Shown in pieces: positions 161 through 47,358 of a stretch of DNA of 64,000 nucleotides. Both the position numbers and the translations under genes were made by a program. The stretch is from Eledone cirrhosa. Taxonomy: Eukaryota. The DNA is taken from positions 42,842,001 to 42,906,000 of the forward strand of contig OZ024742.1 of the NCBI GenBank assembly GCA_964016885.1, written 5' to 3'. The notes beneath the pieces are model-generated. The model ran no database searches and was not told the DNA's origin. It saw only the letters and a list, made by a program, of their open reading frames with translations. The first letter of the stretch is position 1, and the number at the start of each line of letters is the position of its first letter.

Positions 161-1391
161 TGTAGTTAAAATTTGGTCGAATGAGACATACGTTTAGGCA
201 TGATGAGTTTGTCTATTCACTAATATTTGCATTTATTTTTCAAAATAGATAATGATCTTCTTTAAAAGTTTTGACAAAGTTTGTCAGAATTAAATTTAAA
301 GTTGTTCACAGCTCGGGTAATCTTTCCTTTCAGGTAGTTTATAATTCTACAACTGTATTTTAAATGCTCATATTTAGCATTTTCTCTTTGTTTTTGTTAG
401 GTGAATCATTTTGAAATGTTACTTGGTATATTTGTTTATGTAACATTTATATAAATAGATGTGTTGCAGTATATGTATTGTTCAAACACTTGTGTAGAAA
501 TATTTGTATGTAATCTTACCGCATTCTGTAGCTCAACCTTTCCAGTATATGGTATGCTGCCTTCATATAAGCCGTAAATACATACATGCTATCATCAGAC
601 TGATCACAACGGTTGCCATTATTGTTTTATGTATGTATGTAAAAGTTCACTACCACATACCACATTGATTTTACGCATAACGCACACTAACTTTGATACT
701 TTACACAATTTACCTTAAAAAAAACACACATTTAAACATGCACATACACATAATAGCGACACTAATACATACACACACTTCACTTTGTGTTCAATCTCGT
801 TACCAAGACTACCTCTTTATTTTTGATTTTTTTCTTTACTTGGACTCCTTTATCTAATGTTGTACTCCTGAAGAAGGGCTAAAGCCTGTCATGTTGAACT
901 TTCTTTCCCCTTATCCATATAAAGCGTGAAACTAATAAAACTTTTTGTACCTCTGTTTGTTGTCTCCTTGAACTATATATATATATATGTGTGTGTGTTG
1001 AAGTTTCCGTTGAAAAAGTCAGAGGAATGAAGAGTGCTCTATGTAAGTTACAGAGCTAAATATTTAATGTATAATAAACAATACACAATTACCCACTTAC
1101 TTTCTCTTTGCCTTAATTTTTTATTCTTATCTTATATATTATTTCATTTATTCATCATATTTTATATTTGTATCGACTTTCCGTCTGACACTGCGTTGAT
1201 TTTATACACTCCCTTCCCTGTATATATCACATATATATATGTGGTTGCATGTGTGTGTATGTTTATACAGGTGCGTCCTTTCATCCTTGTATGTGTATAT
1301 ATTTCAACCCTTAGTCCCTAAGTCTGTATGTATGCTAACTCCATTTTCTTAGAATTTCTATTTTCAACATATATATATATATAGAGAGAGA

Positions 1392-2327
1392 GAGAAAATT
1401 GAGGTTGGTAATGGCACATGGAATATATAAGAGACAGAATACTTTTTTGTGAAAAAACATAATTTTATAAGGTAAGGAAATAATAAAGGGTATAAAAAAA
1501 ATGACCAGTTTCGATGGGTCTGCAAAAGCCATCTTTTCAAATGTTGATTAATATTAAGAAAAATTAATAATACGAAGAGTTAAAATTTGAGACTTGAAAA
1601 TTCAAGTATAAAATTCATTGTGGGATTTCATAGCAGTTTTCATCTAGGTAGCAACAACAGGTTGACTGCTGTGTCCCTTTCTGGTAGTGAATGAGAAGTT
1701 ATTTGGGGTGTGGGTTATTTTATAAAGGTCAGATTTAGCAATCACCAACTGGCCAGCTGCTGGTCAGTGAGGGGGTGGAAGCAATATACATACACATATC
1801 TTCCTGTGATGGGTAGGAGAGTGGAGCGTGATAGAAAGGGATTTAATGCACTTACACACGTGTGTATATATGGGTGTAAGTGCATTAAATCTCTTTCTAT
1901 CACGCTCCACTCCTACCCATCACAAGAAGATATGTGTATGTATATTGCTTCCACCCCCTCACTGGCCAGTTGGTGATTGCTAAATCTGACCTTTATAAAA
2001 TAACCCACACCCCAAATAACTTCTCATTCACTACCAGAAAGGGACACAGCAGTCAACCTGTTGTTGCTACCTAGATGAAAACTGCTATGAAATCCCACAA
2101 TGAATTTTATACTTGAATTTTCAAGTCTCAAATTTTAACTCTTCGTATTATTAATTTTTCTTAATATTAATCAACATTTGAAAAGATGGCTTTTGCAGAC
2201 CCATCGAAACCGGTCATTTTTTATACCCTTTATTATTTCCTTACCTTATAAAATTATGTTTTTTTCACAAAAAAGTATTCTGTCTCTTATATATTCCATG
2301 TGCCATTACCAACCTCAATTTTCTCTA
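1392..2327. repeat. Long palindrome (~465-bp arms), Penelope pLTR-like, with variant hammerhead
   Basis: 1392-1857 is the near-exact reverse complement of 1874-2327. The arms contain TTGAAAA-GATGG...CCATC-GAAA-CCGG-TC (+ strand 2178-2215). Confidence 0.85.
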
Positions 2328-2625
2328 TAACCTTCGTTTTGTGTAGAAAATTACACTTTTCATATATATATATATATGTATTTGTGGTCACACATACACT
2401 AATATGTTTGCCCCATGTATGTACTTATGCACACATTTTTTCACTATACACATGCAGTTGTACATACACACACATGTACATATGTATGTGCATATACACA
2501 CATTTACACACATCCCCTTACTATATTTCTTTATTTTTATTTTTTATACATTTCTTGTATTTTTTGCCCGTTAAACTTTTAGCCTTTCTTGAAGAGATTT
2601 TTCAAATATTTCACTATGTTTTAAA

Positions 2626-2699
2626 TTGCCTTGTCTGACGAACGAATGCGGACGTTCCTTGTATTCGTCTTATTCGGGAAAACTCTGGTAATGTGGTAA
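2626..2699 (+). ncRNA. Degenerate hammerhead-like motif (PLE end relic)
   Basis: CTGACGA, stem II acgaatgc/gtattcgt, then GAAA...GTA, with imperfect stem I ttgccttgt/atgtggtaa. Confidence 0.4.
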
Positions 2700-2759
2700 T
2701 TATATTGTATTGTTTATTATACATTATATATATATATATATTTGTATATATATGTATAT

Positions 2760-44259: not shown

Positions 44260-45700
44260 TTCGCATGAAACGACACCCCGTTGTCCATATCAACCCTAAG
44301 GCCCTGCACTAATATTGACTCAGATTTCCATCGTCCAGAGTAATGGACTTGTGTCAGCGAGGGGCTTGACATTTCCCGGCATTAAACTGCATATTGCTAT
44401 TTTCGCCCCATTTTATATCATATCCAAATCTCATTGTAAGATAGTATCATCAATCGAATTTTGATTACCTGTGATATTTTCGCGTTGTCAGCATAGCTAG
44501 TGAGAGCAGCTGCCTTTATTATCAAGGGAATGTCTGAGAAGGCTACCACAAAGCCAGTTGCTACAATACAATGCCTTGAGGGACACTACACGTTATTAAT
44601 GTTTCCTTTGGGAGCGCTCCGTTGACTGCGACAGCCTGGCGTCTGTCTTTTAAGAAGTCATGTAACCACTCTACTAGTTTTCCAACTATGCTGAGACCAC
44701 GTTGTTTGTGACACATCATTCCAAGATCAACCTTATCGAAAGCCTTTGCATTGTCGAAATACATTACATCTACGTTTGAGCGGTCTACCAACTGTTTCAG
44801 TATCAAGTCATGATACTGTAAAAGCTGTGTGAGGCAGCTTCTTACCGAACGAAAGTTGTTCTTGGTGTTAGTAAGCTATTTTCCCCTAAGAACGGGATCA
44901 GTTTCCCGTTTATAATTCTTTTCACGACTTGGTTCATATAGGAAGTCAGAGAGAGACAGGATTGTAATTTTTAACATCTACTCTGCTTTCTCCTTTATGG
45001 ACAGGACTTATTATGCCTTTCTTTAACTTTCCGGGGTATTTAAGACATGTGAGGAGACATTGGAAGATAATATGAAGTGGTTTAGCAAAGGAATGATTTA
45101 AGGAGGAGTGTTGGAAACCTGTCAGGACCAGTAGCTGAATTTGAACCCATTTTATCTATGGCTGATATTACATTTTCCTCCTTTATATCAATGTAATTGG
45201 TGGTTGCTATTTTAGTGTAGAGCTGTGATGTCAAAGAAATCATCTGGCTTATTTATTTGTATAAGCACCTCTGGAGTGTGAAAACACTTTTGTATTGCTC
45301 ATTTAGTATTTCAGTTATCCTTTGGGGACCGCACTCAGTGAACCCTTTTGATGGAACAGTGGCCATGCCTTATAGTGTACTAAGCAAACTCTTTTGTATA
45401 TTTAAAAACGGCTTGAAGGTGTTTTTATATTTCTATAGCTTTTCTGCTCTCTCCTTTTCATGGGAGTGTTTGAGTTATGTTTCAGTTTCAATCAGCATCT
45501 ACTTCAAACGGGATCACTTACTGAGTTTTATTTGTATATTTAATCGATTTGAGATCTTTGAAATTTCTACATTTCCCGAAAGAATTTCAAAAATTGCCCA
45601 ACAATTCTAGAGTTTGTATAGAAGCTTGTTTACATCCAAGCTTTTCAGTGTACCAATCCAATTCAGACGGATTTGTTGTTAGAAGACCCTTAGCTTAATA
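44260..45700 (-). pseudogene. Degraded CR1/L2/jockey-type LINE reverse transcriptase relic
   Basis: DVMYFDNAKAFDKVD...WLHDFLKDRRQAVAVNG...SVPQGIVL (44561-44806), YAD at ~44490 and GPD at ~45125; many stops and frameshifts. Confidence 0.8.
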
Positions 45701-45859
45701 CTTAAAATCCTAAATCCTATATCGCCCATCATTTTCTGTCCAGTTGCTCATCGTCCACTCAACAGTAGAACTTACCCACGGGTGGTTTATATCACCTACG
45801 TTGGGAAATTCTTCTTTGCTGATTGATTCATTACTATTATAGTTGTCATTATGATAGTG

Positions 45860-46030
45860 ATCGGTAGAGAGTTAGATGCCATGCTTTGCGGCATAGAGTT
45901 ACAGCTCTTTACGGTCTGAGTTCAAATCCCGCACAGTTTAACTTTGCTTTTCATCCTTACGGGGTCGATCAAATAAAGTACCAGTAATGCACTATGATAA
46001 TTGCTGGTCTTGTGCCAAAAGTAGAAACAA
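45860..46030 (+). mobile_element. SINE copy
   Basis: ctgagttcaaatccc...ctttcatccttacggggtcgatcaaataaagtacc. Confidence 0.8.
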
Positions 46031-46859
46031 TTATGATAGTGATGTTAATAGTATTAATACACACATAAACACAATTCCTGTACATTTGCCATTGACTATT
46101 GAATACAACAGGCATGAATTGTTACAGTCTAAACTAAACAACGACACTCCCGATTTTGATGCGAAAGTACCACGAAATTAGTGCCTTATCCCATGATGAC
46201 CCTCAGCTTATCAAATTATATTTTAAACTTGAGTAACCCTTCTGCTAAAAAACCTGAAAGGATTCTGACTCCATATTTTTTGGCGCGAAATTACCAAAAT
46301 AATTTGATGCTTAATCACGTGATCTTCCTGAACATATCAAATTGTACTTCAAACATATAACACTACAAGCCACATTTTTATAAAAAACTGAAAGAAATTC
46401 CCAACGTCAGTTAAATGCGAGCTACATGTCGGCATAGTTACACATTTCTCCACCGGTAAAGTTATAAATTATTGTAAATAAACCTTCTTTTTCAACTGCT
46501 TTTTCCTTATATATATATATATATATATAAGTAAAAAGAAGAGACACACACTGTATTTAAGTTCGAGTGACGCAATTTCGAGTGATTAACGGCCTTTAGA
46601 CTAACCTGATCAATGAAACAATTGTTAATTCTATAAATAAAACCCTTTTTGTACAGCCGACCATGTTATTCTTCACTCTTTCACTATATATATATATATA
46701 TATATATATATATATATGATCTCAGTTTGACAATCTCCCCCAACGAATGCGAGAAGGTTCTCCAGGAAAGTTAACCTGGAATCTTTAAACATCTCCCCAC
46801 CGAAGTTAACAAACAACTTACTAGATCTACCAAATCATAATATTATAAAATTAAATCAA

Positions 46860-47358
46860 ATTGTTTAGAACTACAAGTGAAGTCATTTTTTTCATTTTTT
46901 TAAATACACACACACACATATATATATATAAGTATGTATACGTACATACATATATGTATACAGACGTACAGTAGTATGTATATATATACATACATTCACA
47001 CATATATATATGTACGTATGGATTTACCGAACATTTATTATAATGCTCGGTGTGTTTGTAAACAAACATCTCGAATTAAGCCGTACAGTGTTTAGCAACC
47101 ATCGTTGCCCTTTTGTTCAACACTGACAAAGGAACGATGTACTAGTTTCAAGCTTATTAGCTATCGTCAGCACCGTATACCTTCCTGCCAGATGATTGAA
47201 CGTCTGAAAGTATATACTTTCCTTATGCATATTAACGGCTGAGCAGCCTAATTTGCATATCGAGTGAGTTAATCGGCCGGGCGCACCGATAACGATAAAC
47301 GGAAAAAATGAAACGAAGTTTCATTTCTCACTCTTAGTACGGCTGTTACTTAAATATA
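46860..47358 (-). mobile_element. Diverged copy of the 31.5-32.3 kb hammerhead family
   Basis: Homologous throughout; hammerhead on - strand 47133-47176 with a CTGACGA core and conserved GAAA-CTAG-TA-catcgtt. Confidence 0.82.

Follow-up and report, generated by a model that had tools for sequence, protein, structure and literature searches.

A 64,000-nt window of the Eledone cirrhosa genome (positions 42,842,001 to 42,906,000 of contig OZ024742.1, assembly GCA_964016885.1) harbors a series of repeats with hammerhead ribozyme motifs, many of them inserted in a polar (TA)nTG satellite, which on the plus strand reads as (TA)n with single-G interruptions. Three of the hammerhead families in the window, here called A, B, and E, are terminal repeats of Penelope-like elements (PLEs), and three others, C, D, and F, are non-coding tandem retrozymes; G, H, and E′ are placed in neither class. 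Most of the inserts consist of a minus arm followed by a plus arm with the 3′ ends outward, and the two arms end at two different, family-specific points, a rule that probably reflects paired priming of reverse transcription on both strands of the target. A preliminary description of this DNA had placed distinct hammerheads at nine positions, and a core is present at every one of them (Table 1).

A descriptor of stems I–III matches the window 27 times, and none of 30 local shuffles of the window yields a match. The strict descriptor misses E, E′, G, H, and the D copy at 15589, which were found by eye or with a looser descriptor. Type I hammerhead features (core, stems I–III, and cleavage triplet) are present in the families and are weak or mutated in the window copies of E′, G, I, and K. 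An Rfam scan of the window gave no match at the gathering score, its output being dominated by TA-driven microRNA matches; family D matched Hammerhead_HH9 with an E value of 1e-7, below threshold. Folding z-scores of single motifs are weak except for C, D, and B. The self-complementary stem III attributed to most motifs is a perfect palindrome in five of the nine (A, C, D, F, and H) and near-palindromic in B and G, but it is not found in E and E′. The proposed count of about eight distinct families falls to about seven lineages, D being related to F (66% over 249 nt) and E to E′ (86% over 77 nt). A single D insertion, seen twice in a duplicated stretch, accounts for the copies at 15255 and 25606. 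Beyond the nine, additional hammerhead-type ends, partly decayed, lie at 861, 2635, 41731–42003, 42937, and ~43690, and at least 20 hammerhead families recur among the loci fetched from the genome. Next to family G, 30 loci show no open reading frame (ORF); the one exception is a fragment of a Hydra-like endonuclease on the downstream side.

The 3′ ends of each family fall at two fixed points, 35–95 nt apart. Counted from the cleavage site, they are at ~130–139 and 159–172 nt in C, ~229 and 303 in D, +111 and +153 in A, +51 and +145 in B, and ~238 and 302 in F, while in E they are at ATG+26 and ATG+85. In 73 of 74 two-armed inserts from six families, counted where both outer ends could be read, one arm ends at each point (C 18/18, D 4/4, E 22/23, A 14/14, B 11/11, and F 4/4). 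The C count is made up of the 16 two-armed loci out of 19 fetched and two in the window; one complex locus is left out for D, two loci with unassigned ends for F, and, for E, three odd-ended inserts (L125, L092, and L102), the E′/E insert, and one-armed and out-of-range loci. Among the first 100 exact matches of C, 11 of 11 arrays run minus-then-plus. The window F copy has a minus arm that terminates at the internal TA run. When 1088 TA-bounded segments were end-typed without family labels, the same pairs emerged together with about ten more pairs of unlike end types, and the common family J gave 26 unlike-end pairs.

Of 18 C inserts, seven have their longer arm at site 1, and in family E either kind of arm may hold ORF sequence without a counterpart in the other, so that neither arm is simply a copy of its partner. 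Inner junctions are scattered, with 0–5 nt of overlap or 3–14 nt of filler, and those of C lie within 15 nt of the cleavage site in 3 of 36 cases against 3.6 expected, that is, the cleavage site is not favored. Variants private to a locus are mostly common to both arms; for F, the arm-to-arm differences are 0, 0.5, 0, 0, 2, 7, and 0, compared with a mean of 6.9 between loci. The start sites have 2–10 AT letters in common with the target. There are also fold-backs of mixed family, D-B (L180, 465–1772), F-J (L275, 2301–2700), and E′-E, in which complementary sites are paired. The D-B and F-J chimeras have no TA at the junction, and all such fold-backs are explicable by deletions between inserts; for 40296–41670 (E′/E), an event with two RNAs was considered and dropped, the double junction fitting a deletion between two inserts.

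Families A, B, and E have a reverse transcriptase (RT) followed by a GIY-YIG endonuclease in one ORF, as in endonuclease-containing PLEs, and a hammerhead in a pseudo-long terminal repeat, tandem or inverted copies, and a tail are all present. Their assignment to PLEs comes from motif reading and pairwise blastp, in which the three proteins are 23–26% alike over short stretches only. The GIY-YIG remnant noticed earlier in this region scores above the cut-off for Pfam PF01541 at 40898–41284 and belongs to family E, in which it is 97–100% identical among the 150 genome matches scored; one E copy has ~1180 open codons covering RT, a CX4CxxC finger, and the endonuclease. Long copies of A run into an RT-finger-GIY-YIG frame of 765–829 aa in a unit of 4969 bp, with the N-terminal part in another frame at one locus (L214), and family B has an open frame of 873 aa (L207) in a unit of 4511 bp. 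In Pfam searches, GIY-YIG was found for E, and RVT_1 was found for A, weakly for E, and not for B. The B protein of L207 has the marks of the Hydra clade (DKT, a CxCX5C linker, CxxC, CxH, no CCHH, and a TA target). A and E, in which a CX4CxxC finger precedes GIY-YIG and internal cysteines and histidines are found, would belong to the Neptune or Nematis clade, for which a CX2-5CxxC finger ahead of GIY-YIG together with CCHH is characteristic, and A is termed Neptune-like. Twin hairpins past both start sites are present in B and absent in A, C, D, E, and F. As a separate observation, the untranslated region of A holds ~600 nt of TA/TG microsatellite (L145, L146, L148, and L151, ~560–1200), and each long A copy thereby spreads microsatellite.

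Families C, D, and F are small non-coding tandem units with a type I hammerhead and a GC content of 34–36%, like non-LTR retrozymes, and their units are computed to be 60–67% paired when folded as circles. The unit of C is 310 bp, with 171 exact units in the genome; that of D is 467 bp, with 916 first-look candidates; and that of F is ~470 bp, with 10,005 exact 42-mer matches. The C array of the window has 15 units over its two arms together, and the variant C′ has four at 28.0–29.3 kb; the arrays are nearly 100% uniform. The proposed relation to PLE ends is borne out for A, B, and E, but C, D, and F have no sequence identity with the terminal repeats of A, B, and E beyond simple repeats. The D-B chimera, together with a short likeness of the site-2 sequences of D and B, hints at B as a possible helper of D, while a deletion between inserts would look alike. 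The C unit is present in contigs of four sequencing runs of unspecified kind, as a single 340-nt contig in three of them, which has no bearing on expression. Two further observations concern family C. One array (L033) has two stem II variants, and its outermost unit differs from the others in both arms. A repeat M (L167 486–870, L255, and L308) is 77% alike to the 150-nt start-site region of C and has a different hammerhead, which suggests that modules swap.

A background sample of forty 10-kb stretches at round coordinates (L285–L324; 400 kb, unselected) contains 20 strict hammerheads in 17 events, or ~1 per 20 kb. If the sample is typical, the 3.0-Gb genome would contain ~150,000 strict hammerheads. 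The proposed targeting of TA runs is borne out by this sample: (TA)6 lies within 400 nt downstream of 15 of the 20 hammerheads, compared with 22 of 98 controls resembling short interspersed elements and 27% of random positions. Within 400 nt upstream, (TA)6 is found for 8 of 20. The window itself had been taken as a hotspot, and its seven strict events against 2.7 expected (P ~0.02) lend this some support, which is weak as 19% of the window is TA versus 4.2% in the background, a content 4.5 times higher. Per TA base the window is not richer in hammerheads, and it is only mildly rich in them because it is TA-rich. TA targeting is thus general in this genome, and the window does not stand out. 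Four of the 20 strict matches belong to a second U3-A8 hammerhead family (L289, L311, and L324), with a Neptune-like ORF upstream in L311.

At the upstream site of family A, 15 of 19 ends have 3–52 CT units before TA, while the template has two. No extra (CT)n was found in 181 ends at eleven other sites, and two CT units are kept in 18 of 18 copies that read through the site. The A copy in the window has six. Extra (CT)n is also found in three listed copies of another hammerhead family and in single copies of two more. A pre-existing compound repeat as the target is disfavored, because CT sits between the element and TA at one site only. It is likely from these end sequences that the RT of family A stutters out (CT)n at its upstream site, as does telomerase, to which Penelope-type RTs are sister. 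Across the 400 kb of unselected DNA, runs of (CT)n stand before (TA)n in 66 places and runs of (AG)n in none; for (CA)n and (GT)n, the counts are 66 and 35.

Rare marks in the satellite are collinear between ~10.3–15.6 kb and ~15.8–26.0 kb, across a 200-N gap; the pair may represent two haplotypes, one on each side of the gap, or it may have arisen by tandem duplication. In the former case, the C insertion would be heterozygous. The empty C site in copy A is a 19-nt TA run. In the filled copy B, the full 19-nt run is on the left, and 13 nt of the run with a 10-nt AT filler are on the right, so that ~20 nt were gained. A pattern search found no empty A site, and diverged homologues served as proxy, in which 13 nt correspond to 15 + 16 nt. 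One clean target duplication of 15–17 nt was found at another locus. The polarity of the satellite is the same on either side in six of six inserts. From the constant polarity and the gain of ~20 nt, it follows that the long satellite predates the inserts, and ~20 nt of TA per insertion do not explain a satellite of 30 kb; the construction of a polar satellite by RT at insertion was rejected for the same reasons. The idea that the elements expand (AT)n tracts accordingly finds little support for the long satellite, and what is left of it is the small-scale synthesis of (CT)n at insertion ends.

Table 1. Coordinates of hammerhead-bearing inserts and related features in the window
Position	Strand	Feature	Core	Remark
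861..973	+	Family K, degenerate hammerhead-type end finishing in TA		sequence; homologues in 5 fetched loci
995..1085	-	Family I, outer arm of fold-back (~995-2729) that hosts the A insert
1384..1395	-	Extra (CT)n between A upstream start site and TA target		6 units vs 2 in template
1391..1857	-	Family A minus arm (terminal repeat, Neptune-like PLE)	1540-	end at site 1
1860..2362	+	Family A plus arm	2178+ (U3-A8)	end at site 2, ~40 nt further
2389..2729	+	Family I plus arm	2635
3091..33620	+	Polar (TA)nTG satellite		host of B, D, C, E, H, C′, F
4330..4962	both	Family B fold-back (terminal repeat, Hydra-type PLE)	4513-, 4874+	site 2 ends minus arm, site 1 ends plus arm; sites 94 nt apart
10300..15617		Duplicated satellite-plus-D stretch, copy A, without C array		empty site 12270-12288
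15255..15617	-	Family D copy interrupted by 200-N gap	15589-	same insertion as 25605 copy
15818..25970		Duplicated satellite-plus-D stretch, copy B, with C array
17832..20734	-	Family C retrozyme, 9.4 units of 310 bp		outer end = site 1
20734..22618	+	Family C retrozyme, 6.1 units	20879+	outer end = site 2
25605..26163	-	Family D retrozyme (467-bp unit), 1.2 units	25938-	end at site 2
26181..26706		Family E fold-back	26450+	site 1 (ATG+25) ends short minus arm, site 2 (ATG+85) ends plus arm
26905..27275	+	Family H, long-stem-II hammerhead, plus 19-bp inverted stub	26929+
28022..29288		Family C′ (312-bp variant of C)		minus 1.7 units, plus 2.4 units
31527..32350		Family F retrozyme fold-back, ~470-bp unit with internal TA run	31688-, 32013+
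40296..40697	-	Family E′ (diverged E relative), long-tail end	40601-
40755..41670	+	Family E 5′-truncated copy: zinc finger, GIY-YIG (40898-41284), hammerhead	41490+	end at site 1
41731..42003	-	Degenerate hammerhead element	mutated
42017..42340	-	Family G, older one-armed copy	42136-
42937..43012	+	Remnant of second U3-A8 family (A2)
43560..43871	-	Degenerate hammerhead-type repeat near 43690		sequence; homologues in 2 loci
46915..47356	-	Family F′ (78% to F)	47170-

Outside the hammerhead inserts, positions 44100–45600 hold a decayed minus-strand sequence that by eye resembles an RT remnant of a long interspersed element (LINE), and 48860–63200 is a head-to-tail LINE-type cluster (endonuclease, RT, and zf-RVT) with a 1167-aa frame at 54621–58124 and (TATC)n runs at unit boundaries.

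The architecture is probably explained by a one-step insertion of PLE terminal repeats and non-coding repeats into TA runs, with paired RT-endonuclease priming from both nicked strands. In this process, a paired RT-endonuclease complex would nick both strands of the TA run, with its two subunits set at the upstream and the downstream site, respectively, usually of the same RNA. Each 3′-OH would pair briefly with AU letters and then be extended; the two 5′-truncated cDNAs would be joined by microhomology repair, and the staggered nicks would duplicate ~5–15 nt of the target. Less firmly, C, D, and F may be copied round a self-cleaved and circularized RNA to give up to 20 units per arm, a circular template being in keeping with arms that pass through as many as 20 intact ribozyme sites, and at the upstream site of A the RT may slip on a CUCU template and add (CT)n before extension. 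Paired priming brings together the in vitro facts for Anolis Poseidon, namely extension of both strands, two starts bounding the tail, and a predicted dimer (PMC11167929), and the inverted arm with a tail on one side that has long been described for PLEs (PMC8557442; PMC3846280). Alternatively, one arm might be made by target-primed reverse transcription and the inverted arm later by self-priming, fold-back, or an antisense template, with the endonuclease trimming the tail at one end, as suggested in PMC3846280 and PMC8557442. Such a sequential course would also yield one end of each kind and agrees with the private variants mostly common to both arms and with short self-inverted pieces at some junctions (40698–40760; L044). 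It is nevertheless unlikely, because either arm may be longer and hold sequence absent from the other, the extra (CT)n between site 1 and the target points to a start of synthesis there and not to trimming, and both sites are true RT starts in vitro (PMC11167929). That the fold-backs are assembly artefacts from chimeric reads, or inverted repeats like those of DNA transposons, might be suspected from the N gap, the tandem duplicate with its possible two haplotypes, and the nearly 100% uniform arrays; however, the arms end at two unlike family-specific sites, flanks and junctions vary from one locus to the next, one site is also found empty, and A, B, and E continue into RT-endonuclease ORFs, which makes this explanation hardly credible. 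Very improbable, too, is a special hotspot in which the elements build the 30-kb TA satellite. The seven strict events, the TA/TG-rich untranslated region of A, the internal TA run of F, and an AU-templated stutter that would be invisible within TA speak for it, but the unchanged polarity across six inserts, the small gain at the empty site, and a hammerhead density per TA base not above background speak against it.

Several points weigh against paired priming in one step. Every mechanistic step is read from genome footprints. One E insert (L139, 2098–8772) has both arms ending at the upstream site, the three odd-ended E inserts were set aside, and one-armed loci make up 3 of 19 for C and several for D and G; arm pairs are as unlike as unrelated loci in one of seven cases each for E and F. 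The variants shared between arms could stem from later conversion or assembly polishing, and the long A, B, and E loci were partly selected for closely spaced opposite-strand matches. Most targets are pure TA, in which duplications are unreadable, and automated scoring of duplications, with C rows excluded, was mostly uninformative. Tandem arms would equally be expected if a uniform donor array were transcribed into a linear multimer. As for (CT)n, its length may be due to slippage that followed a brief first stutter, and (CT)n adjoining TA is common (66 of 414 run ends in the 400 kb), with 50 of 65 distinct cases in a simple-repeat context. Finally, the in vitro study of Poseidon found no start-site difference between strands and no template-target homology (PMC11167929). 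A wider reading, somewhat less likely than not, is that PLE RTs work as an asymmetric pair, priming both nicked strands from two fixed positions of one RNA or at times of two different RNAs, with a few AU letters serving for alignment and short repeats being gained through slippage on the template before extension. Insertion ends numbering roughly 100,000 would thereby have received (CT)n and probably also (TA)n that stays hidden, which would explain why (CT)n is found only 5′ of (TA)n in this genome.

The elements are ordinary members of known groups, and the element types, palindromic stem III, TA bias, inverted arms, and tails are already published. Endonuclease PLE units have been described with tandem or inverted 5′-truncated copies, a tail often at one end, a (TA)n bias, and a hammerhead in the terminal repeat (Craig et al., 2021, PMC8557442; PMC3846280), and all these features are common to the present families. 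The tail is called optional there, and resolution or self-priming is suggested; here it is 35–95 nt long, ends are one-of-each in 73 of 74 inserts, and three protein types as well as three non-coding families are involved. B shares RW-basic, DKT, CxCX5C, CxxC, CxH, and (TA)n insertion with the Hydra clade, but its unit is 4.5 kb, compared with usually <3 kb (PMC8557442), because of a long untranslated region. Minimal PLE hammerheads (Cervera and de la Pena, 2014, PMC4209133) are alike in the palindromic helix III and the U3-A8 variant, and dimeric cleavage and opposite-strand pairs 100–700 bp apart are also reported; here the hammerheads are known from sequence, and H, I, and K have a very long stem II. 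Metazoan non-LTR retrozymes (PMC7229834; bioRxiv 10.64898/2026.07.22.740005) resemble C, D, and F in non-coding tandem units of 310–470 bp, GC content of 34–36%, a type I hammerhead, 60–67% pairing as circles, and co-occurrence with PLEs, but the present ones have two divergent arms with PLE-type ends, and the available text of PMC7229834 contains no mention of inverted or opposite arrays. Copying of a circular template has been proposed in PMC4209133 and PMC7229834.

No statement of a strict one-of-each rule or of repeat addition by a PLE RT was found in the literature surveyed, which took in main texts and few subscription papers, the older work on Penelope lying outside it. A genuine (CT)n stutter would mean that a retrotransposon RT adds repeats in the manner of telomerase, and it would be one way in which microsatellites are born. 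The origin of the tandem and inverted structures of PLEs and of their microsatellite preference is named as an open task in PMC8557442, and this genome offers families that are young and nearly identical, belong to three protein types, and have open RT-endonuclease frames and two mapped start sites each. A close known system is Anolis Poseidon in vitro, for which both strands nicked and extended, two internal RT starts bounding the tail, an AT-rich target, and a predicted dimer are reported (Frangieh et al., 2024, PMC11167929). The two start sites bounding the tail and the AT-rich target are alike, and extension on both strands, seen there directly, is read here from genome footprints; in contrast to Poseidon, the ends in E. 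cirrhosa have a few AT letters in common with the target, and extra repeats are gained at one site.

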